A stretch of DNA of 44,450 nt from sequence record MZ234012.1. One strand, 5' to 3'. A model generated the notes under the pieces. The model searched no databases. It worked only from the letters and a program-made list of their open reading frames with translations, and was not told where the DNA came from. Both the position numbers and the translations under genes were made by a program. Positions 3,689-29,108 of this stretch are shown here, piece by piece (the first letter of the stretch is position 1; each line of letters starts with the position of its first letter). The DNA is from Escherichia phage vB_EcoP-101101UKE1.

Positions 3689-3704
3689 GTCTCACATGTG
3701 AGAC
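3689..3704. promoter_or_regulatory. conserved 16-bp palindrome GTCTCACATGTGAGAC (copy 1 of 6)
   Basis: Perfect inverted repeat immediately upstream of the phage promoter at 3707. Confidence 0.6.
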
Positions 3705-3706
3705 TT

Positions 3707-3729
3707 ATTTACCGGACACTATAGGATAG
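3707..3729 (+). promoter_or_regulatory. phage RNAP promoter (ATTTACCGGACACTATAGGATAG)
   Basis: Matches the recurrent element ATTTACYGGACACTATAGAAG found about 12 times in the window, which is close to the SP6 promoter ATTTAGGTGACACTATAGAAGAG. Confidence 0.75.
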
Positions 3730-3870
3730 CCGTCGGAGACGGGAAAGAAAGGGAAGATAAAGGATATAAAAGGAAGTAATAGGTATTAAAGGTTATATAG
3801 GTTATCTAGGAATACCTATTACCTTCTCCCTTCCTCTTATTACTACTTAGAGGAAGGGCAGATCTAGGTT

Positions 3871-3886
3871 GTCTCACATGTGAGAC
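3871..3886. promoter_or_regulatory. conserved 16-bp palindrome GTCTCACATGTGAGAC (copy 2 of 6)
   Basis: Perfect inverted repeat immediately upstream of the promoter at 3892. Confidence 0.6.
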
Positions 3887-3891
3887 TTCGT

Positions 3892-3914
3892 ATTTACCGG
3901 ACAGTATAGATAAG
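3892..3914 (+). promoter_or_regulatory. phage RNAP promoter variant (ATTTACCGGACAGTATAGATAAG)
   Basis: Consensus-like element with a C-to-G change in the CACTATA core (CAGTATA), upstream of the gp1.1-like gene. T7 likewise has promoters directly before gene 1.1. Confidence 0.55.
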
Positions 3915-3939
3915 ACTAACTTACTTTGGAGATTTAACC

Positions 3940-4068
3940 ATGCGTAACTTTGAGAAGATGACCCGTAAAGCTAACCGTTTTGACATGGAAGAAGGGCAGA
4001 AGAAAGGCAAGAAGCTGAATAAACCTGTCCGTGACCGTGCATCTAAACGCGCTGCGTGGGAGTTCTAA
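3940..4068 (+). CDS. T7 gp1.1-like small basic protein (42 aa, MRNFEKMTRKANRFDMEEGQKKGKKLNKPVRDRASKRAAWEF)
   Basis: Short ORF below the six-frame track cutoff. N-terminus MRNFEKMT and overall length and basic character match my recollection of T7 gene 1.1, and it sits directly after the RNAP gene as in T7. Confidence 0.6.
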   Translation: MRNFEKMTRKANRFDMEEGQKKGKKLNKPVRDRASKRAAWEF

Positions 4069-4071
4069 GTT

Positions 4072-6060
4072 ATGGCTATTATTCAGAATGTACCGTGTCC
4101 TGCCTGTCAAAAGAATGGACATGATATTACTGGCAACCATCTTATGATATTTGACGACGGAGCAGGATACTGTAACCGTGGTCACTTCCATGATAACGGT
4201 AAACCTTATTACCACAAGCCAGAGGGTGGCATCGAGATAACCGAATTGCCTATTACTGGCAATATCAAATATACACCTTCTCAATTCAAAGAAATGGAGA
4301 AGGAAGGGAAGATAAGCGACCCTAAGCTACGCGCCATCGCTCTTGGTGGTATGCGTATGAAAGACCGTTGGGAGGTCATGAATGAGCAAGAAAGGGCAGA
4401 CCAAGAAGCAGAGTGGAAACTTGATGTTGAATGGTTCCTCACGCTTAAGCGTAAGAACCTTGTTTCCCGACACATTCGCGGCGACATTTGCGCATTGTAT
4501 GATGTACGTGTTGGGCACGATGAAGAGGGTAGAGTCTCACGGCATTACTATCCGCGCTTCGAAAAAGGTGAGCTAGTAGGCGCTAAATGTCGCACATTAC
4601 CTAAAGATTTTAAGTTTGGTCATTTAGGTAAACTCTTTGGTATGCAAGATCTTTTCGGTATGAATACTTTGTCTCACGTGTTAGACAAGGGAAGACGAAA
4701 GGATTGCTTGCTTATTGTGGGTGGGGAACTGGATGCACTAGCAGCGCAGCAGATGCTCCTTGATTCTGCCAAGGGCACTAAGTGGGAAGGCCAGCCATAC
4801 CATGTATGGTCTGTCAACAAAGGCGAGTCTTGCCTTGAAGAGATAGTGCAGAACCGTGAGCATATCGCCCAATTCAAGAAGATTATATGGGGTTTTGATG
4901 GAGATGAGGTAGGGCAGAAGCAGAATCAGCAAGCGGCTCGCCTGTTTCCTGGCAAATCCTATATCCTTGAATACCCCTCTGGTTGCAAAGATGCTAACAA
5001 GGCATTGATGGCTGGCAAGGCTAAAGAATTTGTAGATGCATGGTTTAATGCCAAGTCATCTGATGAAGTCTTTGGTAGCCAGATTAAATCTATCGCATCT
5101 CAAAGGGATAAGCTCAAGGCTGCACGTCCAGAGCAAGGACTATCATGGCCTTGGCCTAAGCTGAACAAGGTAACGCTAGGTATTCGTAAGAATCAGCTTA
5201 TCATTGTAGGTGCAGGGTCTGGTGTAGGTAAGACTGAGTTCCTTCGTGAAGTAGTTAAGCACCTCATTGAAGAACACGGTGAATCTGTAGGCATCATTTC
5301 TACAGAAGACCCGATGGTCAAGGTGTCCCGTGCTTTTATCGGCAAGTGGATTGATAAGCGTATTGAGTTGCCGCCAACCAACGACCCGAAAGAAGATGGA
5401 TACCGTGAGGTGTTCGACTACACCGAGGAAGAAGCTAACGCCGCCATTGATTATGTAGCTGATACAGGTAAGCTGTTTGTAGCTGACCTAGAGGGTGACT
5501 ATTCGATGGAAAAGGTAGAGCAAACTTGCCTAGAGTTTGAGGCTATGGGTATTTCTAATATCATCATTGATAACTTAACGGGGATTAAATTAGATGAGCG
5601 TGCTTTTGGTGGGAAGGTTGGTGCACTTGATGAATGCGTCAAGCGGATTGGTACTATCAAAGACCGACACCCGGTTACTATATTCCTTGTATCACACCTT
5701 ACACGTCCTCCGGCAAACCGTACCCAACACGAAGAAGGTGGCGAAGTTATCCTTTCTGACTTCCGAGGCTCAGGCGCTATCGGATTCTGGGCATCTTACG
5801 CCTTGGGGATTGAGCGTAATACAAGAGCTGAAACGCTTGACGAAAGGACTACCACGTACATCTCATGTGTCAAAGACCGCGACCAAGGTATCTGGACTGG
5901 AACCAAGGTCATGCTTAAGGGTGACATTCAAACCGGACGTTTAATGGAACCACAAGCCCGTACTAAGTCATTTGACACCGGCGAAGCAAGGCAACAAGAA
6001 GTACCGGATTTACCGGACACTATAGAAGAGACTAACTTCGATGAAGAAAGTGAGTTCTGA
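4072..6060 (+). CDS. DNA primase/helicase (T7 gp4-like), 662 aa
   Basis: N-terminal zinc ribbon CPACQKNGHD...CNRGH, helicase Walker A GAGSGVGKT, and an acidic C-terminal tail ending DEESEF. Confidence 0.92.
   Translation: MAIIQNVPCPACQKNGHDITGNHLMIFDDGAGYCNRGHFHDNGKPYYHKPEGGIEITELPITGNIKYTPSQFKEMEKEGKISDPKLRAIALGGMRMKDRWEVMNEQERADQEAEWKLDVEWFLTLKRKNLVSRHIRGDICALYDVRVGHDEEGRVSRHYYPRFEKGELVGAKCRTLPKDFKFGHLGKLFGMQDLFGMNTLSHVLDKGRRKDCLLIVGGELDALAAQQMLLDSAKGTKWEGQPYHVWSVNKGESCLEEIVQNREHIAQFKKIIWGFDGDEVGQKQNQQAARLFPGKSYILEYPSGCKDANKALMAGKAKEFVDAWFNAKSSDEVFGSQIKSIASQRDKLKAARPEQGLSWPWPKLNKVTLGIRKNQLIIVGAGSGVGKTEFLREVVKHLIEEHGESVGIISTEDPMVKVSRAFIGKWIDKRIELPPTNDPKEDGYREVFDYTEEEANAAIDYVADTGKLFVADLEGDYSMEKVEQTCLEFEAMGISNIIIDNLTGIKLDERAFGGKVGALDECVKRIGTIKDRHPVTIFLVSHLTRPPANRTQHEEGGEVILSDFRGSGAIGFWASYALGIERNTRAETLDERTTTYISCVKDRDQGIWTGTKVMLKGDIQTGRLMEPQARTKSFDTGEARQQEVPDLPDTIEETNFDEESEF
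6008..6030 (+). promoter_or_regulatory. phage RNAP promoter (ATTTACCGGACACTATAGAAGAG)
   Basis: Exact consensus, embedded in the 3' end of the primase/helicase coding sequence. Confidence 0.75.
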
Positions 6061-6081
6061 TTAGTGTACTTATCAGGGCTT

Positions 6082-6097
6082 GTCTCACACGTGAGAC
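6082..6097. promoter_or_regulatory. conserved palindrome GTCTCACACGTGAGAC with extended arms (copy 3 of 6)
   Basis: Lies inside a longer imperfect hairpin gggcttGTCTCACACGTGAGACaggctc followed by ttatt, just after the primase/helicase stop. Confidence 0.6.
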
Positions 6098-6136
6098 AGG
6101 CTCTTATTAAGTACATTAAATAACTGGAGATTGATT

Positions 6137-6820
6137 ATGTATAAATTAGTATTGAATGTAGGTGATTATGTTCGTAACATCAATGTAACCTCACGTAGAT
6201 ATCGTTGCCGTGGTACTGTGACTAATGTAAGTGAAAACAGCTACTATGTAGAGTACAGTAATGGTATTAGACAGGCTTATCAAAAGGAATCAGCACATAA
6301 CTACCTTGAGAAGATTGGAGAGGTAAGCAATCAATGTAAGTGCGTACACGATGAGGTTTGCGATAAGTGTGCCCGCCAGCTGCATAAAATGCTATTATAC
6401 CCTCTTCGCTATGGTGCTGGTGTTCAAACATTAGCAGAGGCATATGGCAAAAGTAAGATCACACTCAAGAAAGAGCGCCGCAATGTAATCACTGGTAAGA
6501 CTCAAAGTGAAATGATTAAACTATGTGGCACTGCATTAGGTGTTACGCAGTTTAATACTCGTTCATTGGGTAAATCCACAGGGCAAGCTATGGTAAAGAT
6601 TGGCGAAGCCATGATGCATCCAAATGTACCTGTACGAATCATGGATGTTGACCATGCAATCACAGAACACGGTACGCAACGACGTGTAATTAATAAGCAT
6701 TTTGCCGACACTATAGAAGGTATTATTCGTAAGCAAGAGTTGAAGGGTCTTCACATCTTAAATGGTGAAGAATTACTGTACCTACCTATCGTTACTGAAG
6801 AAACATACGTGAATATCTAA
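6137..6820 (+). CDS. hypothetical protein (227 aa)
   Basis: ORF with RBS ggaga 6 nt upstream of ATG 6137 (the track's 6131 start is a TTG). No motif recognised. Confidence 0.5.
   Translation: MYKLVLNVGDYVRNINVTSRRYRCRGTVTNVSENSYYVEYSNGIRQAYQKESAHNYLEKIGEVSNQCKCVHDEVCDKCARQLHKMLLYPLRYGAGVQTLAEAYGKSKITLKKERRNVITGKTQSEMIKLCGTALGVTQFNTRSLGKSTGQAMVKIGEAMMHPNVPVRIMDVDHAITEHGTQRRVINKHFADTIEGIIRKQELKGLHILNGEELLYLPIVTEETYVNI
6699..6720 (+). promoter_or_regulatory. possible weak phage promoter (ATTTTGCCGACACTATAGAAGG)
   Basis: Core GACACTATAGAAGG is perfect but the upstream specificity region has 3 mismatches. It lies inside the 6137..6820 ORF. Confidence 0.35.
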
Positions 6821-6830
6821 GGAGTTAATC

Positions 6831-7049
6831 ATGACTAAGGTATTAATTTATATGCGTGGACCTCATAAATGCTATGCAGTTGTAGCACCAAATGGTGTTA
6901 AGCCCTATAGTACTTCAAAAGGATTGGCATTAATAGGTGCTAGTAGTAGTGCAAGTTTCCAAATGGAACTTTTTGGTCATTGGACTGAATGGCAATTCCG
7001 TGAGGATTTTAAAGTCATTGGCAGCTTCATGGTGAAACATGCAGAATAA
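6831..7049 (+). CDS. hypothetical protein (72 aa)
   Basis: Strong RBS taaggag upstream of ATG 6831. Confidence 0.45.
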   Translation: MTKVLIYMRGPHKCYAVVAPNGVKPYSTSKGLALIGASSSASFQMELFGHWTEWQFREDFKVIGSFMVKHAE

Positions 7050-7225
7050 ACATAGTCTTAAAATGTTCGATGGTCATGAAGACCTGCAAGCCAAGATTAC
7101 TAACCAAGCCTTCCTGTTCGCACAGTTAACTATGGCTGAAGCAAAGAAGAATAGCCTGACGCGTGAACAGGTTATCAAGGAAAGTGAAGTGAAACGTAAG
7201 ATTCGCAGTCGATAAGTCAAGGGTT

Positions 7226-7241
7226 GTCTCACACGTGAGAC
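7226..7241. promoter_or_regulatory. conserved palindrome GTCTCACACGTGAGAC with extended arms (copy 4 of 6)
   Basis: aagggttGTCTCACACGTGAGACagccttt forms a roughly 12-bp imperfect stem followed by a T-rich stretch. Confidence 0.6.
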
Positions 7242-7272
7242 AGCCTTTCATCATATTGATTGGAGGTGCATT

Positions 7273-7380
7273 ATGCCACGTGATTATGATTCTGATTGGG
7301 ATTTCCAAGATTCAATGAATCCAAAACCAGAACGTTCAGATGATTACTACGAAACAGAGGCAATGTATGAAGACTATTAA
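7273..7380 (+). CDS. small acidic protein (35 aa, MPRDYDSDWDFQDSMNPKPERSDDYYETEAMYEDY)
   Basis: Strong RBS ggaggtg before ATG 7273. Below the ORF-track size cutoff. Confidence 0.35.
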   Translation: MPRDYDSDWDFQDSMNPKPERSDDYYETEAMYEDY

Positions 7381-7585
7381 ATTAAGCAAGGTTTGCTCTT
7401 GCGGTAAAGGTTATCGCAGTCGTATTGATGGTAAGTGTGGGCATTGCAGGTCTAAGAAAGAGGCTGCTTTGTTTGATAAGTACCACAATGAATTAGCATA
7501 TAACTATCCTCATCTAACACCTAATTCTTTATTAGGACTTGGTTATAGGGTTAAATACTTTGGAGCAATCTATGAAATCAATTGA
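7367..7585 (+). CDS. small zinc-ribbon protein (CxxC...CxxC)
   Basis: Internal start MKTIKLSKVCSCGKGYRSRIDGKCGHCRSKK with RBS agagg. Its 3' end overlaps the DNA polymerase start. Confidence 0.4.
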   Translation: MKTIKLSKVCSCGKGYRSRIDGKCGHCRSKKEAALFDKYHNELAYNYPHLTPNSLLGLGYRVKYFGAIYEIN

Positions 7586-10118
7586 TTGGAAGAAGGAGGC
7601 AGAAGGTCGTATCCTCGTGATGGATGCGGAAGCTAAAGGACTCCTTGACGCTATCCGATATGGACACCGTGAAGATGTGCATATCATTTGCTGCATGGAT
7701 TTGCTTACTACCGAGGAGTTTCTCTTCTTTGACCCGTATGAGATGCGTGACCCTGAAGCAAGAGAACGCCTGAAGGAATGGGAAGGTCATCAAGACGGAA
7801 CCTTGGTTGATGGTGTTAACTTCCTGAAGCATTGTGAAGCTATTGTGTCACAGAACTTACTAGGGTATGACGGACTTCTCTTTGAGAAAGCATTCCCTGA
7901 TATTTGGAAGGGCTTTAACTATACCGAGAAGCGCGGTAAGGGCAGACTCCGTGCTGACCTGTGTCCGGTGCGAGTCATGGATACGCTGGTGATGAGTCGC
8001 CTGTTAAACCCCGATAGACGCCTTCCTCCGCAAGCATATGCCAAAGGTATGGGTAACGTCGCCCCTCACTCAATTGAGGCGCACGGCATCCGTATAGGCC
8101 GCTATAAACCGGAGAACGAGGACTGGTCTAAACTAACTGACCACATGGTTCACCGTGTACGTGAGGACGTGGCGATTGGTCGTGACTTGTTCCTCTGGCT
8201 CTTTAACGGGGAATGGATGGAGCACAAACGCCGTGGCGTGAATAAACGCACTGGCCTAGGTATTGAGACAGCCTTCCACATGGAGTCCATTGTGGCGCTG
8301 GAGATGAGCCGTCAGGCAGAGCGTGGATTCCGTCTGGATATTGACAAAGCACTAGCGCGATGCGAAGAACTGGACGCTAAGATTGACGAGACAGTCGCAG
8401 CGTTCCGCCCTCACATGCCTATGCGTATCAAGTCTAAGCCTTTTAAACCGGAAGAAAAGAATGAAGTATGCCAACGCGCAAATGAGTATGGAGCTAGCAA
8501 CAATATACCTACTGTCCTTGACCCCTCACACTTTCTTCATGCCGAGAGACGAGGAGATCGCAAGACAGTATGGAGTGTCACTACTAAGTCTGGTGATTGG
8601 TCGGCTAGTGTCAAGAAAGACTTTCCTCACCTTAGAGGAAACCGTAATGACACGCCAAGCATCAAGTGGATTGGCGCTTACTCGCCTGTTACTTTCGAAG
8701 AGATTCCCTTGGGTAACAGGGATACAGTTAAGCAAGTGCTCTATGATTATGGATGGAAAGGTGTTGAATTTAACGATACCGAGCAAGCGCATCTCGATGA
8801 GCACGGAGTGTTACCCAAACCTTGGAGTGGTAAGATAAATGAAAAGTCCCTTACTTTATGGCAAGAGAGAGCCGCACGTGAAGGTAAAACAGTCCCTGAT
8901 TGGTGCTTGGGTATCGCTGCATGGTACATACTCGTATCCCGTCGTGGTCAGATACTCAACCGTGGTGACGTTGAAGCCTTCAACGAGAAGGGAACGTGGC
9001 CCTCGCAGGCTGGTGTACGAAAGTGTCGCGGCCTTGTACCTGTAGCATTCAACAAGGAGCTAGGAATCAATGCGCAGCAATACTACGAGAGGTACGGATG
9101 TTGGCCTACGTCTGACAAAGATGATGGAGAGTGGCGTGTTCCAGCTGTTGCTATTAGCATTGGCACTTCTACGTTCCGTATGCGTCATCGTAACGTGGTC
9201 AATATTCCTGCCCGTGGCTTGTATCCTTTACGTGATTTATTCATAGCAGGGAAAGGCAAGCTAATCCTTGGTTGTGACGGTGCAGGTCTTGAACTGCGTG
9301 TCCTGTCTCACTTCATGAATGACCCTGAGTACCAAGAGATTGTACTGCACGGTGATATTCATACGCATAACCAGATGAAGGCTGGTCTTCCTAAGCGTGA
9401 TATGGCGAAGACGTTTATATACGCCTTCCTCTATGGCTCTGGTATAGCCAACCTTGCAGCAGTATGTGGTGTTACTGAGGAAGAAATGAAGGAAGTTGTG
9501 GCAAGATTCGAGATTGAACTGCCGTCTCTTGCACGTCTTCGTGAGAATGTTATCGCACAAGGTAACAAGTTTGGCTACCTGCAAGCACCTGATGGGCATT
9601 GGGGTCGCATCCGCATGTCTGGTGGTGAACTTAAAGAGCACACGATGCTTAACGTATTACTCCAGATGACTGGCTCTTTGTGTATGAAATATGCATTAGT
9701 CAAGGCATTTGCAGTAATGCGCAAGGAAGGTGTAGCCTTGGATGCTATGGGAAATCCTTGTGGTGTGGCTAACGTGCATGATGAAATCCAGATGGAAGTT
9801 CCTGAAGAGGAGGTCTTGTATCTTAACTACGACCTACCTTTCACCTTAGATGGGTTCGAAACAGAGAAGGCTGCCGTGAAGGCAGTGTTCGATGCAGAGG
9901 AGAAACGTGTTCATGTGGATTCTGAAGGACGTATGTGGTCTGCTGCAAACCTCGTTAGTGTTGATGCTGATGCTGGTGTATTGCATTGCCAGCGCCGTTA
10001 TCACCGTGCAGGTCATATCATTGCCGACGCCATGACTTGGGCAGGGCAGTATCTGAAGATGCGTTGCCCGATGGCAGGCGAATATAAGATTGGCGCAAGT
10101 TGGAAGGAAACACACTGA
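7572..10118 (+). CDS. family A DNA polymerase with 3'-5' exonuclease domain (T7 gp5-like)
   Basis: Exo I motif ILVMDAEAKG, pol motif A DGAGLELRVLSHF, motif B KTFIYAFLYG and motif C VHDEIQ. Start chosen at ATG 7572 (RBS tggag); the track ORF opens at 7539. Confidence 0.92.
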   Translation: MKSIDWKKEAEGRILVMDAEAKGLLDAIRYGHREDVHIICCMDLLTTEEFLFFDPYEMRDPEARERLKEWEGHQDGTLVDGVNFLKHCEAIVSQNLLGYDGLLFEKAFPDIWKGFNYTEKRGKGRLRADLCPVRVMDTLVMSRLLNPDRRLPPQAYAKGMGNVAPHSIEAHGIRIGRYKPENEDWSKLTDHMVHRVREDVAIGRDLFLWLFNGEWMEHKRRGVNKRTGLGIETAFHMESIVALEMSRQAERGFRLDIDKALARCEELDAKIDETVAAFRPHMPMRIKSKPFKPEEKNEVCQRANEYGASNNIPTVLDPSHFLHAERRGDRKTVWSVTTKSGDWSASVKKDFPHLRGNRNDTPSIKWIGAYSPVTFEEIPLGNRDTVKQVLYDYGWKGVEFNDTEQAHLDEHGVLPKPWSGKINEKSLTLWQERAAREGKTVPDWCLGIAAWYILVSRRGQILNRGDVEAFNEKGTWPSQAGVRKCRGLVPVAFNKELGINAQQYYERYGCWPTSDKDDGEWRVPAVAISIGTSTFRMRHRNVVNIPARGLYPLRDLFIAGKGKLILGCDGAGLELRVLSHFMNDPEYQEIVLHGDIHTHNQMKAGLPKRDMAKTFIYAFLYGSGIANLAAVCGVTEEEMKEVVARFEIELPSLARLRENVIAQGNKFGYLQAPDGHWGRIRMSGGELKEHTMLNVLLQMTGSLCMKYALVKAFAVMRKEGVALDAMGNPCGVANVHDEIQMEVPEEEVLYLNYDLPFTLDGFETEKAAVKAVFDAEEKRVHVDSEGRMWSAANLVSVDADAGVLHCQRRYHRAGHIIADAMTWAGQYLKMRCPMAGEYKIGASWKETH

Positions 10119-10234
10119 TGGATAGGCTTGACATTGTTTACCTATTCTTCACTTTCTTTCTTACACTCCTTATGCTTGCTTGTTATGGGAGTATGAGACT
10201 AGATATATCTGATGAAGAAGAGGGTTACGACTAA
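10118..10234 (+). CDS. small hydrophobic peptide (38 aa, MDRLDIVYLFFTFFLTLLMLACYGSMRLDISDEEEGYD)
   Basis: ATG overlaps the polymerase stop (TGATG). One predicted transmembrane helix plus an acidic C-terminus. Confidence 0.3.
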   Translation: MDRLDIVYLFFTFFLTLLMLACYGSMRLDISDEEEGYD

Positions 10235-10332
10235 TGCAAACTGCTTTTATTATTCTTGGTATCATATTATTTATGGTAGTATTCTGGGCTTTCTCTGGCA
10301 TTGACCCAGATTGTGATGGTAACTACGACTGA
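10234..10332 (+). CDS. small hydrophobic peptide (32 aa, MQTAFIILGIILFMVVFWAFSGIDPDCDGNYD)
   Basis: TAATG-coupled to the preceding peptide, with the same architecture (TM helix plus acidic tail ending YD). Confidence 0.3.
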   Translation: MQTAFIILGIILFMVVFWAFSGIDPDCDGNYD

Positions 10333-10391
10333 GTTATACTCAAGGTCACTTACGAGTGGCCTTTATGAATAACTTAACTGGAGGAAATATA

Positions 10392-10949
10392 ATGAATGAA
10401 CTGAACACTAAGATGCTCAAGAAAGTTTATAATCTTGTATATAGTATCACGGGCCTACACTTCTACCCTGTAGGCGGTGCGGTTCGTGACACCCTGTACG
10501 GATTAACACCTAAAGACTATGATATGGTGTTGCCTGTAGGGTCTATGGCAGATTCTCAGGCGCACGAAATCATGGAAAATATCTCTGAAGAGATGGCAAT
10601 TATGGGATTTAGTACCAAACTCTACCAATCATACGGTATCAATTTAGGTTATGAAATCAACCCTACCTCTTTTCAGGCTATGTTCCTTAGCTGCATGAAA
10701 GTGCAGATGCGTAATTGCCAACTTGATTTGCTTCTTTCTAAGGCTGAAACCATCCAAGATCATGTACGTAAGCACGATTGCAATATGAATATGGTGTGGT
10801 TCGATGGTAAAGATATCAAGTGGGAGCACGGCGGTGTTACTCCTTTCGTTCCTGTGTTAGAGTTCAACCCTGACGGATGTGATCGTCGCATTGCTTACAT
10901 GGACAAGAAGCGCCATGAACTTATCCGTCACAAATTAATGCATCTTTGA
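10392..10949 (+). CDS. minimal Pol-beta-superfamily nucleotidyltransferase with CCA-adding-enzyme/poly(A)-polymerase head motif
   Basis: Motif VGGAVRDTLYGLTPKDYDMV (GGxVRD followed by DxD) matches the class II CCA-adding enzyme head signature. RBS ggagga 7 nt before ATG 10392. Protein is only ~185 aa. Confidence 0.6.
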   Translation: MNELNTKMLKKVYNLVYSITGLHFYPVGGAVRDTLYGLTPKDYDMVLPVGSMADSQAHEIMENISEEMAIMGFSTKLYQSYGINLGYEINPTSFQAMFLSCMKVQMRNCQLDLLLSKAETIQDHVRKHDCNMNMVWFDGKDIKWEHGGVTPFVPVLEFNPDGCDRRIAYMDKKRHELIRHKLMHL

Positions 10950-10970
10950 TTTACCGGACACTATAGAAGG
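10949..10970 (+). promoter_or_regulatory. phage RNAP promoter (ATTTACCGGACACTATAGAAGG)
   Basis: Consensus match. Confidence 0.75.
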
Positions 10971-11035
10971 AAGTCCTAGGTAATCTAGGTTTATAAGGTA
11001 GTATAGGTAATTAAGTAAATATAGGAGATATAAAC

Positions 11036-11413
11036 ATGTCTATGGTAACTACTCTGGTATTTGTAGCTCAATACTTTCGTGGTCTGGCTAATAAGTTCAA
11101 GTCCAAGGCTATCAAAGCTATTGAGTCTCGCATCGAGGCAGTACAGGCAGAGCAAGTTAAAGTTGAAGAACATCGTAGTTCTCAAATGATTGACTGCCAT
11201 AACCGCTACTATGCATCTCGTGATGACCTTAATGCACGCCAAGTCAAAGAGGTTGAAGAGATGCTGGCACGTCACCAGCAAGAGCGCGACAGCCTGAAAG
11301 CTGAATTTGAAGAGAACAAGGCATCCATCGCCCTTGTACATCAAGCCGCATCTGACAACCTGAAGAAAGAGATTGTTATGCTGGAAATTGAGTTAGACAA
11401 CCTGACCAAATAA
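11036..11413 (+). CDS. hypothetical membrane-anchored coiled-coil protein (125 aa)
   Basis: RBS aggag. N-terminal hydrophobic segment MSMVTTLVFVAQYF followed by heptad-like charged sequence. Confidence 0.45.
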   Translation: MSMVTTLVFVAQYFRGLANKFKSKAIKAIESRIEAVQAEQVKVEEHRSSQMIDCHNRYYASRDDLNARQVKEVEEMLARHQQERDSLKAEFEENKASIALVHQAASDNLKKEIVMLEIELDNLTK

Positions 11414-11434
11414 TTACTGGACACTATAGAACAA
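11412..11434 (+). promoter_or_regulatory. phage RNAP promoter (AATTACTGGACACTATAGAACAA)
   Basis: Consensus match. Confidence 0.7.
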
Positions 11435-11490
11435 TAGGTCGGCTTAGTTCGGCCTATGATTGTGTAGTGTAACAATAGGAGACTAAATAA

Positions 11491-12297
11491 ATGGCACGTG
11501 GTGATTTTGATTTTGGTGCTCAGGTTACTAAAGCTGAAGGTAAGGTTTTTAAGAACCCTGAAGTTGGTGATCATGAAGCAGTAATCTCTGGCATCATTCA
11601 TGTGGGTTCCTTCCAAGATATCTTTAAGAAAGGTAATACCACTGAAGTTAAGAAGCCAGCAAACTTTGTTCTTGTTAAGATTGTACTGATGGGTGACGAT
11701 GACAAGAACGAAGATGATTCTCGCATGGAACAGTGGATGGCTGTGCCTCTGAAGTCTGGTGACAAGGCAACCTTGACTAAGTTCCTGAATGCAGTTGACC
11801 CTAAAGAGCTGCTTGGTGGTTTCGATGACTTCATCGGTGAATGCCTGACTGCAACTATGGTTGGCTCTGGCGACAAGAATGATGATGGTACTTTCAAGTA
11901 TGTTAACTGGAAAGGCTTTGGCGGTATGCCTGATAAGTTGAAGAAGCTTGTACTGGCTCAGGTAGAAGAGGAAGGTCTGTCTATGACAGGTCATATCACC
12001 TTCGACAAGCTGACCAAAGAAATCCTTGATGACATTCCTGCTAACTTGGTGCGTCAATACTTCCTTAATGAAACACCTCGTGGTAAGAACCTGTCTGTTG
12101 CTGGTTCTCACGTAGAAGCAATCATTAAAGCTGCTCGTGAAGAAGACCCAGAGTGGAAGAAAGCCAAGAAGAAAGATGACGAGGATGCTACTCCAGCTAA
12201 TCGTAAGTCTCTGGATACTGGCGAGTCTGTTCCACAGGAAGTACCTGAAGCAGAAGATACTCCTGCACCGGAGATGGATGAGGACGCGGAATATTAA
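11491..12297 (+). CDS. putative single-stranded DNA-binding protein (gp2.5-like), 268 aa
   Basis: Own promoter, strong RBS aggag, highly biased codon usage, and an acidic C-terminal tail ending DEDAEY (T7 gp2.5 has an acidic tail ending in F). The assignment is tentative. Confidence 0.45.
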   Translation: MARGDFDFGAQVTKAEGKVFKNPEVGDHEAVISGIIHVGSFQDIFKKGNTTEVKKPANFVLVKIVLMGDDDKNEDDSRMEQWMAVPLKSGDKATLTKFLNAVDPKELLGGFDDFIGECLTATMVGSGDKNDDGTFKYVNWKGFGGMPDKLKKLVLAQVEEEGLSMTGHITFDKLTKEILDDIPANLVRQYFLNETPRGKNLSVAGSHVEAIIKAAREEDPEWKKAKKKDDEDATPANRKSLDTGESVPQEVPEAEDTPAPEMDEDAEY

Positions 12298-12306
12298 GGA
12301 GAAAGG

Positions 12307-12525
12307 ATGAAAGTACAAATCGTAACTCTGCACTGCAAGAAAGGTATCACAACGCTCGGAGGTAGCACTTTCCACTCTTTCTCCGAAGGGGAGATTTATG
12401 CTGACCTGCACTACATCTGGCGCGACGGACAGCACGTGGTGAACTACAGCGACCCCGCTACGGGGAAGCGCCACGGCGTATCGCTTCCGGCGCATGACAT
12501 TGCTCAGGTGAACACAGTTTTATAA
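12307..12525 (+). CDS. hypothetical protein (72 aa)
   Basis: Strong RBS taaggagaaagg before ATG 12307. Confidence 0.4.
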   Translation: MKVQIVTLHCKKGITTLGGSTFHSFSEGEIYADLHYIWRDGQHVVNYSDPATGKRHGVSLPAHDIAQVNTVL

Positions 12526-12526
12526 A

Positions 12527-12542
12527 GTCTCACGTGTGAGAC
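12527..12542. promoter_or_regulatory. conserved palindrome GTCTCACGTGTGAGAC (copy 5 of 6)
   Basis: Immediately after the stop of 12307..12525 and 15 nt upstream of the promoter at 12558. Confidence 0.6.
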
Positions 12543-12557
12543 AAATCGGTGTCCGGT

Positions 12558-12580
12558 ATTTACTGGACACTATAGAAGAG
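12558..12580 (+). promoter_or_regulatory. phage RNAP promoter (ATTTACTGGACACTATAGAAGAG)
   Basis: Exact consensus. Confidence 0.8.
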
Positions 12581-12629
12581 AAGAATTTTAATCGGCGATA
12601 ATGCCACAACTAACAAAGGAGAATTTAAT

Positions 12630-13010
12630 ATGTTCAAGATTGAAACTATCGTAAACCGTGTTGTTAAAGGTGCTGCTCTGGTATCCGTTGAGTCTTTCAT
12701 TATCGTCGATGAAGCTGATCAACTGGTAGCTGGTACTAAGGCTTACGATACCCGTGAAGAAGCTCAGGCTAAGATTGACAGCATGGGTAACTTCGCTGCT
12801 GGTCTGGAGTTCGCTCGCGCTTGCTTCCCTGAGCAGGCTGACAAAGCTCAGATTGGTAAGGCTAATATCGTAGCTGAATATCTGGATTGGATTGCTGCTG
12901 GTAAGCCGGTGAAAGAAGTTAAGTCTGCTGAAGAAGCTGAATCTCAGGCAGTAGAAGAAGAAGTAGCTGCACCGGTAGATGCTCCGGTAAGCGAAGAGGA
13001 AGAGTTTTAA
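12630..13010 (+). CDS. abundant acidic protein (126 aa) with C-terminal acidic tail ending SEEEEF
   Basis: Strong RBS aaaggag, own promoter, codon usage like the capsid gene, and a terminator directly downstream. Confidence 0.5.
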   Translation: MFKIETIVNRVVKGAALVSVESFIIVDEADQLVAGTKAYDTREEAQAKIDSMGNFAAGLEFARACFPEQADKAQIGKANIVAEYLDWIAAGKPVKEVKSAEEAESQAVEEEVAAPVDAPVSEEEEF

Positions 13011-13012
13011 TT

Positions 13013-13047
13013 GATGCCCTGTCTGCCTTAGTGTAGGCAGGGTCTTT
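13013..13047 (+). terminator. putative rho-independent terminator
   Basis: Imperfect hairpin gccctgtctgcc...ggcagggtc followed by ttttg. Confidence 0.45.
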
Positions 13048-13074
13048 TGCGTAATAGTTATTGGAGAATGAATT

Positions 13075-17626: not shown

Positions 17627-17764
17627 AGGAATGGAGATGCTTGAGATGATTCTCAAGCCTTCTTCTCCGAAGGTGACTAAGACTCATGAAGAGTTAATCG
17701 TTGATGAAGTGAAGCGTTACATCATGGATTGTGTCAGAGCACAACTGGTGGTCCAATGATACGT

Positions 17765-18217: not shown

Positions 18218-18226
18218 GGAGACAAC

Positions 18227-18436: not shown

Positions 18437-18437
18437 T

Positions 18438-20908: not shown

Positions 20909-20913
20909 TCAGT

Positions 20914-20936
20914 ATTTACTGGACACTATAGAAGGG
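20914..20936 (+). promoter_or_regulatory. phage RNAP promoter upstream of the capsid gene (ATTTACTGGACACTATAGAAGGG)
   Basis: Consensus match. A strong promoter before the capsid gene is typical of T7-like phages. Confidence 0.8.
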
Positions 20937-20984
20937 AGAAATGTCTCCCTAAAATATCACTTTGATTTATAAGGAGGTTTATTA

Positions 20985-22187: not shown

Positions 22188-22195
22188 TACCTATG

Positions 22196-22228
22196 CCCTA
22201 TCTACCTTGCGTAGGTAGGGTTCTTTTT
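22196..22228 (+). terminator. rho-independent terminator after the capsid gene (T-phi-like position)
   Basis: Hairpin ccctatctac...gtaggtaggg followed by ttcttttt. Confidence 0.7.
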
Positions 22229-22241
22229 GTTAGGAGGATTC

Positions 22242-22979: not shown

Positions 22980-25381
22980 TGGAAGTACAAGGTTCATTAG
23001 GTAGACAAATCCAAGGTATTAGCCAGCAGCCGCCAGCGGTACGCTTGGATGGTCAGTGCACAGCTATGATTAATATGATACCTGATGTAGTGAATGGTAC
23101 TCAATCACGCATGGGTACAACTCATATTGCAAAGATACTTGATGCGGGGAATGATGACATGGCTACTCATCATTATCGCAGAGGTGATGGTGATGAAGAG
23201 TATTTCTTCACGTTGAAGAAAGGACAAGTTCCTGCGATATTTGATAAGTATGGGCGCAAATGTAATGTGACTTCACAAGATGCACCTATGGCTTACTTGG
23301 CTGAGGTGATAAACCCAAGAGAAGATGTGCAATTTATGACGATAGCTGATGTTACTTTCATGCTTAACCGCAGGAAGGTAGTTAAAGCTAGTAACAGAAA
23401 GTCACCCAAAGTTGGAAACAAAGCCATTGTGTTTTGTGCATATGGTCAATACGGTACATCTTATTCCATTGTAATTAATGGGGCCAACGCTGCTAGTTTT
23501 AAAACACCGGATGGTGGAAGTGCAGACCATGTTGAACAAATTCGAACTGAACGTATCACTTCTGAATTGTACTCTAAGTTACAGCAATGGAGCGGTGTGA
23601 GTGACTATGAAATACAAAGAGACGGTACTAGTATATTTATCGAGAGACGGGATGGTGCTAGCTTTACAATAACAACCACCGATGGTGCAAAAGGTAAGGA
23701 TTTAGTGGCTATCAAGAATAAAGTTAGCTCTACTGACCTACTCCCTTCTCGTGCGCCTGCGGGTTATAAAGTGCAAGTGTGGCCTACTGGCAGCAAACCT
23801 GAGTCTCGTTACTGGCTGCAAGCTGAGCCTAAAGAGGGAAACCTTGTATCTTGGAAAGAAACAATAGCTGCCGATGTATTACTTGGGTTTGATAAAGGCA
23901 CAATGCCTTATATCATTGAACGTACAGGTATCGTAGACGGCATAGCTCAATTCAAGATAAGACAAGGCGATTGGGAAGATCGTAAAGTAGGAGATGACCT
24001 GACTAACCCTATGCCTTCTTTTATTGATGAAGAAGTACCTCAGACAATAGGTGGGATGTTCATGGTGCAGAACCGCCTATGCTTTACAGCAGGTGAAGCT
24101 GTTATTGCTTCTCGTACATCATACTTCTTCGATTTCTTTCGTTATACGGTTATCTCTGCATTGGCAACTGACCCATTTGATATTTTCTCAGATGCTAGTG
24201 AAGTCTACCAGCTAAAACATGCAGTGACCTTAGATGGCGCTACCGTGTTGTTCTCTGATAAGTCACAATTCATACTGCCAGGAGATAAGCCTTTAGAGAA
24301 GTCAAATGCATTGCTTAAGCCTGTTACAACATTTGAAGTGAACAATAAAGTGAAGCCAGTAGTAACTGGTGAATCGGTAATGTTTGCCACTAATGATGGT
24401 TCTTACTCTGGTGTACGAGAGTTCTATACAGACTCTTATAGTGACACTAAGAAGGCACAAGCAATCACAAGTCATGTGAATAAACTCATCGAAGGTAACA
24501 TTACCAACATGGCAGCAAGCACCAATGTCAACAGGTTACTTGTCACTACCGATAAGTATCGTAACATAATCTACTGCTACGATTGGTTATGGCAAGGAAC
24601 AGACCGTGTACAATCAGCATGGCATGTATGGAAGTGGCCTATAGGTACAAAGGTGCGAGGTATGTTTTATTCTGGCGAATTACTTTACCTGCTCCTTGAG
24701 AGAGGTAATGGTGTCTATCTGGAGAAGATGGATATGGGTGATGCATTAACCTATGGTTTAAATGATCGCATCCGAATGGATAGACAGGCAGAGTTAATCT
24801 TCCAGCATTTCGAAGCAGAAGATGAATGGGTATCTGAACCGCTACCTTGGGTTCCTACTAACCCAGAACTTTTAGATTGCATCTTAATCGAGGGTTGGAA
24901 TTCATATATTGGTGGTTCTTTCCTATTCAAATACAACCCCGGTGATAACACCTTGTCTACAACCTTTGATATGCATGATGATAGCCACGTAAAAGCGAAG
25001 GTTATTGTTGGTCAGATTTACCCTCAAGAGTTTGAACCAACACCTGTAGTTATCAGAGATAGGCAAGACCGTGTATCCTATATTGATGTACCTGTTGTGG
25101 GATTAGTTCACCTTAATCTTGATATGTATCCTGATTTCTCCGTGGAGGTTAAGAATGTGAAGAGTGGTAAAGTACGCAGGGTGCTAGCGTCAAACCGGAT
25201 AGGTGGTGCTCTCAACAATACAGTAGGTTATGTTGAACCAAGAGAAGGTGTCTTCAGATTCCCACTGAGAGCTAAGAGTACGGATGCTGTTTATCGTATT
25301 ATTGTAGAATCACCTCACACATTCCAGCTTCGTGATATTGAGTGGGAAGGGAGCTACAATCCAACCAAAAGGAGGGTCTAA
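22979..25381 (+). CDS. tail tubular protein B (gp12-like)
   Basis: ~800 aa, TAATG-coupled to the tail tube A gene. Confidence 0.75.
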   Translation: MEVQGSLGRQIQGISQQPPAVRLDGQCTAMINMIPDVVNGTQSRMGTTHIAKILDAGNDDMATHHYRRGDGDEEYFFTLKKGQVPAIFDKYGRKCNVTSQDAPMAYLAEVINPREDVQFMTIADVTFMLNRRKVVKASNRKSPKVGNKAIVFCAYGQYGTSYSIVINGANAASFKTPDGGSADHVEQIRTERITSELYSKLQQWSGVSDYEIQRDGTSIFIERRDGASFTITTTDGAKGKDLVAIKNKVSSTDLLPSRAPAGYKVQVWPTGSKPESRYWLQAEPKEGNLVSWKETIAADVLLGFDKGTMPYIIERTGIVDGIAQFKIRQGDWEDRKVGDDLTNPMPSFIDEEVPQTIGGMFMVQNRLCFTAGEAVIASRTSYFFDFFRYTVISALATDPFDIFSDASEVYQLKHAVTLDGATVLFSDKSQFILPGDKPLEKSNALLKPVTTFEVNNKVKPVVTGESVMFATNDGSYSGVREFYTDSYSDTKKAQAITSHVNKLIEGNITNMAASTNVNRLLVTTDKYRNIIYCYDWLWQGTDRVQSAWHVWKWPIGTKVRGMFYSGELLYLLLERGNGVYLEKMDMGDALTYGLNDRIRMDRQAELIFQHFEAEDEWVSEPLPWVPTNPELLDCILIEGWNSYIGGSFLFKYNPGDNTLSTTFDMHDDSHVKAKVIVGQIYPQEFEPTPVVIRDRQDRVSYIDVPVVGLVHLNLDMYPDFSVEVKNVKSGKVRRVLASNRIGGALNNTVGYVEPREGVFRFPLRAKSTDAVYRIIVESPHTFQLRDIEWEGSYNPTKRRV

Positions 25382-26127
25382 TGGCTATAGGTTCAGCCGT
25401 TATGGCTGGTATGTCTTCTATTGGTAGTATGTTTGCAGGTAGCGGTGCAGCAGCCGCTGCTGGGGGTACTGCCGCAGCAGCAGGAGGGACAGCCGCCGCA
25501 GGTGGCGGAGGTTTGCTTGGCTCCCTTGGTAGTTTCTTAGGAGGTTCTTCTGCTGGCTTCTCTAATGCAGGGCTGCTTAGTGCAGGTATGCAAGGTCTTG
25601 GGCTTCTAGGCAATCTTTTTGGTGGAAGTGATGAAGCCAAAGCTATGAAGAAAGCTCAGGAGGAGCAATGGCGGCAGCAGTTAATTGCTACACAAGAAGC
25701 ATATAAGACAGTAGCAGATGCAGAACGCTCTGCTGCTAAACAGTATCATGCGGATGCAATAAGCAATCAGGCTTCACTGCTACAGCAAAGAGCGCAGGTT
25801 GCACTACTTGCAGGTGCAACTGGCACTGGTGGTAACTCTGTATCTTCTATGCTGAATGACTTAGCAGCAGAGGGCGGGAGGAACCAGAGTACAATTATTG
25901 ATAACTATGAGAATCAGAAGATTAACTTCACCAATCAGCTTAAGTCTATCCAGCGAGGTGGACAGATGCAGATGCGTGAGTTTAAGAAGCCTTCTGCCGT
26001 GAGCACCTTGGTGCAAGGTATACCGAGTCTGGCATCTGCCTATGTAACAGGTAGTAAGTCCGGCATGGCTTTAGGTAAAGCTTTAACTGACTCTCGTACA
26101 TATTCATCTGGAACAAGAGGTATTTAA
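25381..26127 (+). CDS. internal virion protein A (Gly/Ala-rich N-terminus)
   Basis: TAATG-coupled to the previous gene. First of three consecutive genes in the T7 gp14-16 position. Confidence 0.6.
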   Translation: MAIGSAVMAGMSSIGSMFAGSGAAAAAGGTAAAAGGTAAAGGGGLLGSLGSFLGGSSAGFSNAGLLSAGMQGLGLLGNLFGGSDEAKAMKKAQEEQWRQQLIATQEAYKTVADAERSAAKQYHADAISNQASLLQQRAQVALLAGATGTGGNSVSSMLNDLAAEGGRNQSTIIDNYENQKINFTNQLKSIQRGGQMQMREFKKPSAVSTLVQGIPSLASAYVTGSKSGMALGKALTDSRTYSSGTRGI

Positions 26128-29075
26128 TGGCAATTGAGCGACAAGCAGTACAAGGTCTGCCACAAGTGCAGGCCACTTCTCCTAATGTCATGACCTTTGC
26201 ACCTCAACAAGTGGGAGGTGTGGAGGCTGGCGTGGCTTCTACCTCCGGTAGTAGATTTATCGAAGACCTTATTCGTGCAGCCAGCAGCGTGGCTGATGTT
26301 ACCACTGGTATCCTTAATCAGAAGATTGAGGAAGATAAGGTTATTCAAATGGAGCGGGCATATAATGGATTAATGCCTTCTGAGGATGCAACTCGTGGTG
26401 GCGCTCGTGCTAACATGCTTGTCAAAGCTCAACTGCTAGCTAATGATGAAGCAGCACGAATGAAAGACATGGCTACTCGTTTCCAAGGGACGGATGACGA
26501 GTGGACACAACTTATGGTTGACTCTCGTAATGAGATGCAGAATAAGCTGTTCCAGCAATACCCTGAGTTGCAAGGTGACAAAGACACTATGCGTATGGTC
26601 ACTAATGTCTTCCAAGAACAGCAGCCTCAGATTTGGGCTACACGAACCCAGCATAAACTTGACCGTGAACAAGCAGACCGTGAGGATACCTTTGACGGGC
26701 GAGTGGCTTCTACTTGGGATTCTAATATTGACCCTGAAGCCTCTGGCTATGCTTTACAGGAACGAATCCGCGAAGGTCTTACTCAAGGATTACTACCTGA
26801 ACAGATGCACAAGAAGTTAGTCCAGCGAGCAATTTCACTTGCACAAGGCGGTGATGTTAGCATGGCTGAAGCCCTGAAGTATGTGAAGGACGATAAGGGT
26901 GTTTCTGTTTATGCTAAGAACCCACAGCTTATCACAGCCATCACTAGTGGTAATGCAGTTTGGGCTAGGAATAATGTAGCTGATGTAACTCGTATGTCTT
27001 TCGAGGTTAAAGAATCCTACCTTGCAGGTGATTTAACTGATGAAGAATTGTTGGAACGAGCACAGCACATTAATAATCTTACAGGTAACTCTGTCTTCTC
27101 TAATCCAGAACTAGAGGCACTGATGCGCCAACGGGCTAAGCAGAATGCAGAGCTAGGTGCAATGCAGGATATGCGACGTGAGCTTTACTCCGATCGCCTG
27201 ACTGGCTTCCAAGGTAAGACTGATAAAGAGAAGAAGGCTTACATTGATGTTATCAAACAAGATAGCCAACTTTATGCAGACCAGCAAATCAAACAACGTG
27301 GCTTGGACCCTTACAGTCAAGAGGCTGAAGCTATTCGTGGTGCAGTGGAAGTGCAGCGCCTGCAATTCATGAACTCCAAAGGCTTAGTGGATGATACCTT
27401 TGAGTCTCGTATCAAAGCCATGGAATCTATACTATCGCCTGAGCACTTTGCCAAGGGCGAACCACAAGAGTTGATGACTATTCGCCAGTTGTGGGAACAG
27501 TTGCCAGAAGAGAGCCGAGGTGTCTTTGGTGACACGGTGAATGGCTACATGGATAACTACAACACTGCACTACAAATGGGAGAGACACCTTTGCAGGCTG
27601 CAAGGTTTGCGCGTGAAGCACAGCAGAAATTCTCTCGTACTGAGAAGGAAACCAAGAAGTTCAACTCAGCTATTGGAGATGCACTGGATGAGGTATCTGG
27701 TGCTGGCTGGTTCGATGGTAAAACCGAAGTGTCAGACTTAGGTAAAGCTATTGCAGAAGAGGAGTTACGAGCTAAGGCTAATATGCTGTGGTCTAGTGGT
27801 ATGCGTAACATGGATTCCATCAAGAAGGCTTTAATTACTTGGGGCAGTAAACGCTACACTCAATCAGAGGATGCAAAGACTTCCGGTGGCTATTTCATTA
27901 AAGGTGATTACACTTCTGCATCTGATATGCTTATGTCAGTTGGGAAAGGCGTAAACCCTACCGATGTACCTCTGGCGCTTGGTAGGTATGTAGAAACACA
28001 GATGCCAGAATTGAAGAAGGAGCTTCAAGAGTGGGAAACTAAAGATGATATATACATTGATTACAATGAACAGAAAGGAACTTTTGTGATTCGTGCTGGT
28101 GCAGCAGGTCGCCCTCTTTCTGGAGTAATCCCTGTAACCTCTTTAGATACCACTTCACTACTAGATTCTGCCTATCAGAAGAAAGTAGAGGCACGAGATA
28201 AAGGCGAGTATGTTCACCCGTATCGTACAGATATTGGTGCACAAGAGCCTATGCCAGCTAAACCAACTGCCAAAGATATTGGTAAATTTGGACTAGCTAA
28301 CTTCCTCATGTCTTCTGCTTTTGCTTCTGGTGAGAATCTGCCTTCTAACTTCGAGATTAACTATCGAGGTAATATGCAACAATTCTATGACAAGCTAGCT
28401 ATGGATGAGAATAAAGATAAAGTTGGCTTTAATAAGGCAACTGGAACCTTTACTCCATATAAAGACGCTCGCGGTGAGTCTATCGGTTACGGTCATTTCT
28501 TAACGGAAGAAGAGAAGCGAAACGGGTATATTAAGATTGGTGATGAACTAGTTCCCTATCGAGGGTCTATGTCTCAGCTTACAGAGAGCAAGGCTCGCGC
28601 TCTTATGGAGCAAGATGCTAAGAAGCATGTGCCTCCTACTCGTGACTGGAAGATTCCGTTTGACCAGATGCATCCTGCACAGCAACGTGGCTTAATGGAT
28701 TTAACCTACAATTTAGGTAAAGGTGGAATCCAGAACTCACCGCGTGCTCTTGCTGCATTCAAAGCTGGTAGGCTTACGGAAGGCTTTATCGAAATGCTGG
28801 GTACTGCATCAAGTGAAGGTAAGCGTATTCCGGGCCTACTGAAGCGACGCGCTGAGGCATACAATATGGCATCTGCTGGTGGTGTGCCTAAGATTACCGA
28901 AGTGGAGACTCGTGAAGATGGCTCCATGTGGGTTAGGTTTGGTGGACCTATGCCAGCAGGTTCTGTCTCGGCATGGACTCATAAACGTATTGGCGCGGAT
29001 GGTTGGTATCAGGTTTATGAGGCTGCACCTACCAAGTTAGCTAAAGGTTCTAAGGTGGGTAAATTTAAGTTGTAG
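26127..29075 (+). CDS. internal virion (ejection) protein B with C-terminal lysozyme-like domain
   Basis: 982 aa. C-terminal region ...ESIGYGHFLTEEEK...LMDLTYNLGKGG... resembles T4-type lysozyme folds. Confidence 0.7.
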   Translation: MAIERQAVQGLPQVQATSPNVMTFAPQQVGGVEAGVASTSGSRFIEDLIRAASSVADVTTGILNQKIEEDKVIQMERAYNGLMPSEDATRGGARANMLVKAQLLANDEAARMKDMATRFQGTDDEWTQLMVDSRNEMQNKLFQQYPELQGDKDTMRMVTNVFQEQQPQIWATRTQHKLDREQADREDTFDGRVASTWDSNIDPEASGYALQERIREGLTQGLLPEQMHKKLVQRAISLAQGGDVSMAEALKYVKDDKGVSVYAKNPQLITAITSGNAVWARNNVADVTRMSFEVKESYLAGDLTDEELLERAQHINNLTGNSVFSNPELEALMRQRAKQNAELGAMQDMRRELYSDRLTGFQGKTDKEKKAYIDVIKQDSQLYADQQIKQRGLDPYSQEAEAIRGAVEVQRLQFMNSKGLVDDTFESRIKAMESILSPEHFAKGEPQELMTIRQLWEQLPEESRGVFGDTVNGYMDNYNTALQMGETPLQAARFAREAQQKFSRTEKETKKFNSAIGDALDEVSGAGWFDGKTEVSDLGKAIAEEELRAKANMLWSSGMRNMDSIKKALITWGSKRYTQSEDAKTSGGYFIKGDYTSASDMLMSVGKGVNPTDVPLALGRYVETQMPELKKELQEWETKDDIYIDYNEQKGTFVIRAGAAGRPLSGVIPVTSLDTTSLLDSAYQKKVEARDKGEYVHPYRTDIGAQEPMPAKPTAKDIGKFGLANFLMSSAFASGENLPSNFEINYRGNMQQFYDKLAMDENKDKVGFNKATGTFTPYKDARGESIGYGHFLTEEEKRNGYIKIGDELVPYRGSMSQLTESKARALMEQDAKKHVPPTRDWKIPFDQMHPAQQRGLMDLTYNLGKGGIQNSPRALAAFKAGRLTEGFIEMLGTASSEGKRIPGLLKRRAEAYNMASAGGVPKITEVETREDGSMWVRFGGPMPAGSVSAWTHKRIGADGWYQVYEAAPTKLAKGSKVGKFKL

Positions 29076-29092
29076 TATCTAACTCAAGGCTT

Positions 29093-29108
29093 GTCTCACA
29101 TGTGAGAC
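29093..29108. promoter_or_regulatory. conserved palindrome GTCTCACATGTGAGAC with extended arms (copy 6 of 6)
   Basis: aaggcttGTCTCACATGTGAGACaggtcttt, between internal virion protein genes B and C. Confidence 0.6.

Follow-up and report, generated by a model that had tools for sequence, protein, structure and literature searches.

The closest described counterparts of the element reported here are the RNase III signals of phage T7, for which Dunn and Studier reportedly described in 1983 the sites R0.3, R0.5, R1, R1.1, R1.3, R3.8, R4.7, R6.5, R13 and R18.5. RNase III has a minimum helix requirement of 11 bp between the cleavage site and the loop, and does not need a conserved apical sequence (PMC1540722). 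The REP/BIME elements of enterobacteria have roles in mRNA 3'-end protection and protein binding. The element in question is a 16-bp palindrome, GTCTCACRYGTGAGAC, in Escherichia phage vB_EcoP-101101UKE1 (MZ234012.1), for which the whole stretch of 44,450 nucleotides that was analyzed is called the window. The window corresponded to a K1-5/K1E-like coliphage of the genus Vectrevirus, subfamily Molineuxvirinae. An earlier note made from the letters alone, hereafter the original prediction, had pointed out the palindrome at six intergenic sites and considered RNase III-like processing, pausing or termination of RNA polymerase, and binding of a dimeric protein. The analysis described below suggested that the palindrome is probably a conserved apical stem-loop module of the SP6/K1-5 group, comprising the Molineuxvirinae and more distant relatives, and that it caps RNase III signals at three sites.

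Distribution of the palindrome in the window

An exact search recovered all six perfect copies of the original prediction (3689, 3871, 6082, 7226, 12527 and 29093), while 100 dinucleotide-preserving shuffles gave 0.00 matches, demonstrating that the enrichment of the palindrome was not due to chance. The view that such conservation calls for a sequence-specific explanation was upheld. All genes of the window, which begins within gp6, are carried on the + strand, and it was confirmed that each of the six exact copies is intergenic and follows a stop codon, the gene ends located 5' of the palindromes being those of the genes for RNA polymerase (988-3615), primase (6060), gp11 (7215), gp17 (12525) and gp35 (29075).

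A mismatch-tolerant search detected two further copies, at 4671 and 42599, with one mismatch each. The former, within the primase/helicase gene, had been missed previously, and a perfect GTCTCAC-type copy at this position would make a TGA stop codon. The latter had been taken for a half-site at 42604; an element is indeed present there, but it is a full copy with one mismatch, and the first TTGACA early host promoter follows approximately 40 nt further downstream. Three of the exact copies precede phage promoters as had been noted, with gaps of 2, 5 and 15 nt.

The exact copies fell into two structural classes, namely those at the tips of long hairpins (6082, 7226 and 29093) and bare copies (3689, 3871 and 12527). 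The earlier description of copies embedded in longer hairpins was thus correct for the first class, whereas the bare copies formed the core hairpin of 6-7 bp alone and folded no better than shuffled sequence.

Long hairpins resembling the RNase III signals of T7

The palindromes at 6082, 7226 and 29093 constitute the tips of 63-nt hairpins on the sense strand, in each of which an asymmetric internal loop separates the 13-bp upper stem from a lower stem of 9-12 bp; the folding free energies (dG) range from about -24 to -32 kcal/mol, the z-scores from -3.4 to -8.9. T7 was folded around its ten RNase III sites, at the coordinates ascribed to Dunn and Studier (1983), and this gave a consensus of ACUCAAGG-stem-loop-CCUUUAUGAU together with a lower stem. 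A covariance model was then built from seven T7 sites alone and the window was searched with filters off. The model recovered T7 R6.5, which had been left out of training, at 42.4 bits, and its top four matches in the window, all on the + strand, were 10328, 29070-29132, 7203-7265 and 6059-6121 in this order (Table 1), with E-values that are rough owing to a shortened calibration.

The boxes characteristic of T7 were also found. Both the CUCAAGG and CCUUUAUGA boxes were complete at 29093, and partial boxes were present at 7226 (GUCAAGG/CCUUUCAUCA) and 6082 (AUCAGGG/CUCUUAUUA). The flanks of the 7226 hairpin resemble those of T7 R4.7 (CCUCAAGG…CCUUCAUGAAU). The T-rich sequence that had been noticed 3' of the hairpins is present, but it corresponds to the CCUUUAUGA-type RNase III box and not to the U-run of a terminator.

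Related phages contained the same structures. A counterpart of the 6082 hairpin was found in SP6, Proteus, PP1 and F4M1D phages, and the homologues of the gp35 site in SP6, Proteus Pm5460, PP1, F4M1D, K1-ULIP33 and Erwinia S2 scored 33-46 bits with the T7-trained model. When twelve hairpins of the gp35 site were aligned, both sides had changed in 7 of the 21 pairs, mainly in the lower stem, and sense-strand G-U pairs were present. The lower stem of the processing hairpins thus covaries. These results supported the assignment of the hairpins at 6082, 7226 and 29093 as T7-type RNase III signals, with cleavage predicted by homology to T7.

At these three sites the palindrome would cap a complete signal consisting of the lower stem, the internal loop with CUCAAGG/CCUUUAUGA-like boxes and the 13-bp upper stem. 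The most likely course is that host RNase III cleaves polycistronic read-through transcripts at the 3' side of the internal loop, at positions that by homology to T7 would be near 6107/6108, 7251/7252 and 29118/29119, and the hairpin would then remain as a protective 3' end of the upstream message. As the T7 box consensus has been kept even though the RNA polymerase is only ~31-32% identical to that of T7, the processing signal is ancient. The palindrome is of ancient origin as well.

The 10328 site, which was also found in K1-5 (12507) and SP6 (12222), has a CCUUUAUGA box spanning the ATG (10365) of an open reading frame (ORF) for a nucleotidyltransferase. This gene is absent from both K1-5 and SP6 though the site is present in them. 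The T7-trained model also gave two weak matches, at 916-972 (18.0 bits, E 0.12), just upstream of the RNA polymerase gene and thus at the position of T7 R1, and at 43541-43593 (19.2 bits, E 0.057) in the early region. A scan of the window with Rfam 15 returned two microRNA models alone, far below their gathering scores and away from the palindromes.

Table 1. Palindrome copies, processing-type hairpins and neighboring signals in the window (RNAP, RNA polymerase)
Feature	Position	Strand	Location and composition	Folding	T7-trained model
RNase III-like hairpin	6059-6121	+	After the primase/helicase gene; core 6082-6097 at the tip; AUCAGGGCUU-core-AGGCUCUUAUUAAG	dG -32.5 kcal/mol, z -8.9	21.7 bits, E 0.015
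RNase III-like hairpin	7203-7265	+	Between gp11 and gp12; core 7226-7241; GUCAAGGGUU-core-AGCCUUUCAUCAU	dG -27.8 kcal/mol, z -5.6	22.0 bits, E 0.012
RNase III-like hairpin	29070-29132	+	Between the internal virion protein genes gp35 and gp36; core 29093-29108; ACUCAAGGCUU-core-AGGUCUUUAUGAU		29.1 bits, E 2.3e-4
T7-type RNase III-like site	10328-10376	+	Upper stem GGUCACU/AGUGGCC; no palindrome		49.6 bits, E 2.5e-9
Bare copy	3689-3704	.	43 nt past early terminator 3623-3646; 2 nt ahead of promoter 3707	z -0.8	No match
Bare copy	3871-3886	.	5 nt ahead of promoter 3892		No match
Bare copy	12527-12542	.	2 nt past the gp17 stop; 15 nt ahead of promoter 12558	z -0.4	No match
One-mismatch copy GTCTCACGTGTTAGAC	4671-4686	+	Inside the primase/helicase gene; encodes S-H-V-L-D		
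One-mismatch copy GTCTAACATGTGAGAC (GTCTAAC/GTGAGAC)	42599-42614	.	Near the left end of the genome		
Phage RNAP promoter	3707-3727	+	Directly 3' of bare copy 3689		
Phage RNAP promoters	3892-3912 and 12558-12578		Same arrangement, after bare copies 3871 and 12527		
Early terminator	3623-3646		Ordinary intrinsic terminator, called strong; separate from the palindromes		

Conservation and sequence constraint in related phages

The element was found at the same map positions in related phage genomes: at the left and right ends; as one or two copies after the polymerase gene and before promoters; inside and after the primase gene; before gp12; between gp17 and a promoter; after gp35; and, each in some of the genomes, within the genes for RNA polymerase and ligase. 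The synteny included the bare copies, as the 3689 copy was shared with K1-5, SP6, ULIP33, Proteus, PP1, F4M1D and S2 phages and the 12527 copy with K1-5, SP6, Proteus, PP1 and S2. It also included the left-end copy, found in K1-5 (559), SP6 (493), ULIP33 (456), PP1 (482) and Proteus (562), in the last of which it abuts a phage promoter. The phage vB-Eco-KMB47 showed 99.9% identity to the window over the 10-kb stretch compared, 3000-13000. No such element was present in Aeromonas phage Tola or T7.

Three variants of the arm were distinguished. The arm GTCTCAC occurs in Vectrevirus, Erwinia phage S2 and many IMG/VR contigs, the proteins of which are only 30-50% identical to those of the window; SP6 has GTCTAAC/GTTGGAC; and GTCCAAC occurs in K1-ULIP33, PP1, F4M1D, PmP19 and Proteus Pm5460. 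In the related loci, 1.77 Mb in total, positions 4-5 of the arm were restricted to TC, TA and CA, and the spacer to AT, AC, GT and GC, that is, purine-pyrimidine. The exceptions were one probable chance match with AT/TC arms and a GA spacer, and five sites of Pm5460 with a 3-nt spacer; the spacer was 2 nt at ~240 sites, and Pm5460 also retains one 2-nt site.

The copies within genes take the variant of their own genome, even when this entails an Asn-to-His change. The primase codons are TCT CAC GTG TTA GAC (S-H-V-L-D) in the window, and TCC AAC GTG TTG GAC (S-N-V-L-D), from GTCCAACGTGTTGGAC, in the GTCCAAC genomes. Mismatches in the core arms were found at 0 of 23 processing-hairpin sites versus 12 of 44 other sites (Fisher p = 0.0055). 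Variants were also mixed within single Vectrevirus genomes, as the GTCCAAC core was detected at the gp12 site of K1-5, the gp35 site of ACG-C91 and the primase site of another Vectrevirus contig. All three of these swaps sit at hairpin copies, and in the latter two the sequence immediately around the core does not differ from that in GTCTCAC-type genomes. Gene conversion is possible at the hairpin copies, the flanks of which are conserved, but it is unlikely to account alone for the variant changes seen genome-wide, as bare and in-gene copies have no common flanking homology.

Some perfect palindromes are read in a second frame, encoding (C/S/R/G)-L-T-R-E-T. This was seen in the gp10 homologue of Erwinia phage S2 (9992) and, for distant phages from IMG/VR (L002, L049, L065, L074, L081 and L110), in their large internal virion protein; the IMG/VR cases were found by motif search and are thus subject to selection bias.

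Copies lacking a processing hairpin

Several observations weighed against regarding the palindrome simply as a part of the processing signal. Three of the six exact copies have stems of 6-7 bp only, and these bare copies lacked the CUCAAGG and CCUUUAUGA(U) boxes and were not detected by the T7-trained model (E > 10). The 3689 copy, with the strong early terminator before it and the first phage promoter after it, may therefore rarely be transcribed. The asymmetry between arms occurred in both orientations with no consistent bias (22 sites with sense-strand U-G versus 14 with C-A), and was reversed at the same site between PmP19 and F4M1D. Literature searches returned no transcript-end data for SP6-like phages. 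In the same searches, both the palindrome and RNase III sites of SP6/K1-5 were undescribed, with the 2004 genome papers of SP6 and K1-5 lying outside their coverage. In addition, as RNase III needs no apical sequence and the 10328 site is free of the palindrome, RNase III does not account for the palindrome's own role.

The RNase III proposal of the original prediction thus stood for 6082, 7226 and 29093, where the T7-like boxes, the architecture, the covariation of the lower stem and the + strand model matches agreed. It did not stand for 3689, 3871 and 12527, which were rejected as stand-alone RNase III substrates because their stems are shorter than the 11-bp minimum. The presence of a signal without the palindrome at 10328 and of palindromes without a processing hairpin at the bare sites indicated that signal and palindrome are separable modules. 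At the bare sites the module is present alone, 2-15 nt upstream of the promoters for DNA metabolism. The strict sequence constraints there imply sequence-specific recognition, which may be achieved by a factor or by the pairing of identical copies.

The transcript from the 3707 promoter opens with a hairpin, CCGUC-GGA-GACGG (3731-3743), which changes in a compensatory manner in PP1 (CCAUC/GAUGG) and F4M1D (CCUUC/GAAGG). The 166-nt non-coding stretch between the two palindromes after the polymerase gene (3744-3870 region) is purine-rich and then pyrimidine-rich with a strong fold; it may represent an origin of replication or a small RNA with a palindrome on either side. Between the 12527 palindrome and its promoter, the spacer (12543-12575) contains an inverted copy of approximately -12 to -5 of the promoter (GGTGTCCGGT/ACTGGACAC). 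This complement shifts along with promoter specificity in SP6 (GTGTC/GACAC), Proteus (GGTGGTCT/AGACCAC) and PP1 (CCGCCC/GGGCGG), and the spacer element is a conserved hairpin.

Possible partners of the palindrome

In addition to the module capping RNase III signals, we tentatively consider it possible that the palindrome is an independent cis-element of SP6-like phages, read by a sequence-specific partner (a phage protein or copy-to-copy RNA pairing), which adds a layer of regulation to the middle promoters and the genome ends, and has been grafted onto the tips of RNase III hairpins. If so, the three variants would mark switches of specificity. That the bare copies track the variant of their genome suggests that a well-studied group of phages has a sequence-specific interaction which has gone unrecognised.

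One form of such recognition, a double-stranded DNA site of a dimeric phage-encoded protein serving as a middle-promoter regulator, an insulator or a roadblock behind terminators, appeared unlikely, although several features agreed with it. The palindrome has perfect dyad symmetry and, at the ~240 sites, a 2-nt spacer under a strand-symmetric purine-pyrimidine rule; AC and GT centers interchange at the same site among close relatives; half-site variants occur on either arm, as counted above; and sites other than the hairpins can have mismatched arms. Every lineage has copies 0-18 nt ahead of promoters, and the element also occurs at the left end and inside genes. Its occurrence at the tips of RNA hairpins would then be merely tolerated, since a palindromic insertion in a hairpin loop leaves folding undisturbed. 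The gp10 gene (6137-6820), located between two copies, was present in all motif-bearing genomes examined and undetected in the motif-free phage Tola. However, Pfam and PHROGs revealed no DNA-binding domain in ten early/middle proteins, and gp10 yielded only an N-terminal KOW/SH3-like barrel when a weak AlphaFold2 model (pLDDT 65) was searched with Foldseek. Searches with PADLOC, of presence and absence across genomes, and of the gp10 profile against PDB and Pfam likewise gave no decisive candidate for the partner protein. Pairing is strictly preserved in the three RNA hairpins, 3-nt and 2-nt spacers coexist within the genome of Pm5460, and GTCTCAC and GTCCAAC cores occur together in single Vectrevirus genomes. 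The mixing of variants, the two-way asymmetry of arms and the lack of a DNA- or RNA-binding candidate complicate a simple model of a co-evolving factor.

The uncharacterised gp10 protein belongs to PHROG 6703; it contains a CxC…CxxC cluster, and its C-terminal domain (RNVITG…FNTRALGKSTGQA…DVDHAI) is conserved. Host transcription factors were also considered; a site for CRP, SlmA or MetJ was rejected as the order or spacing of the half-sites differs and the variants do not track host taxonomy.

The other form of recognition, in which identical palindromes pair in RNA within or between transcripts, perhaps nucleated by the self-complementary CRYG loops, to give a 16-bp duplex cut by RNase III, was judged improbable. 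It would explain one shared sequence per genome without any sequence-specific protein. Indeed, in the minimum-energy fold of 3610-3945 the 3689 copy pairs with the 3871 copy in a duplex of at least 16 bp, and in the equivalent fold of ULIP33 the copies after the polymerase gene also pair mutually, not locally. The three Vectrevirus swaps from GTCTCAC to GTCCAAC were likewise never found at bare copies, being confined to processing hairpins where local pairing suffices. On the other hand, the hairpins that form first during transcription are the local ones, a single copy follows the polymerase gene in PP1, F4M1D and Proteus phages, the centers of partner copies are not always complementary, and the left-end and 3689 copies may escape transcription.

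Pausing or termination of the phage RNA polymerase at the palindrome, as had also been suggested, was the least credible explanation and very improbable: the copies follow stop codons and in distant relatives often adjoin intrinsic terminators, but the hairpins are followed by tails without a U-run (UUAUUUACC, UUCGUAUU, AGGCUCUU, AGCCUUUC, AAAUCGG and AGGUCUUU), for which reason an intrinsic (class I) terminator was rejected, the core lacks the class II ATCTGTT element of T7, copies lie inside the essential genes for RNA polymerase, primase and ligase, and ordinary terminators such as 3623-3646 are separate.

A similar arrangement in prophages

In lambdoid prophages, a perfect GTCTCACACGTGAGAC hairpin precedes a K1-5-type phage promoter (ATTTACTGGACA[C/G]TATAG) by 14 nt, for example at L013:4788-4990 and in E. 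coli O157:H7 FRIK944 (L188, ~2590-2800). The promoter is followed by a strong ribosome-binding site and an unannotated 40-codon ORF (MFHSTSHQAVIMAASVCAKDLFRFTLSLIHFYLTGSPLSF) upstream of iss/bor. The full-length 451-bp segment was found in ~600 of 5426 complete E. coli genomes, with a partial match in 2430. The surroundings of these loci showed no protein similarity to the phage and gave no match with PADLOC. The segment might be a cassette switched on by the polymerase of an infecting SP6-like phage.

Comparison with known systems

The phages K1-5, K1E and SP6 are workhorses of therapy and engineering, and their RNA polymerases and promoters are standard tools; a map of the mRNA-processing signals would aid genome refactoring and the design of expression cassettes. 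Among described systems, the nut/boxB sites of the lambda family are similar in being short RNA hairpins with a lineage-specific sequence that co-varies with a phage protein. Here, however, a partner resembling N is not known, the element forms a perfect palindrome in DNA and obeys strand-symmetric rules, and many copies are located upstream, not downstream, of promoters.

The REP/BIME elements share further features with the palindrome, being short imperfect palindromes after stop codons with a species-specific consensus, the copies of which change together. In contrast, the SP6-like phages have only 7-9 copies, located at fixed map positions across genera and in some cases within genes, with no transposase.

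The greatest resemblance was that of the long hairpins to the RNase III signals of T7, which likewise lie between genes on the transcribed strand, often beside phage promoters, show the same three-part build of lower stem, internal loop and upper stem with CUCAAGG and CCUUUAUGA boxes in common, and have upper stems that are similar within one genome. Signals of the T7 type are irregular hairpins of approximately 20-25 bp in all. Unlike in T7, the upper stem is lengthened here by an invariant 7-bp perfect palindrome with a purine-pyrimidine center, and this palindrome also stands alone ahead of promoters, within genes and at the end of the genome. It occurs in three variants that change genome-wide, whereas T7 has no recurrent perfect palindrome.

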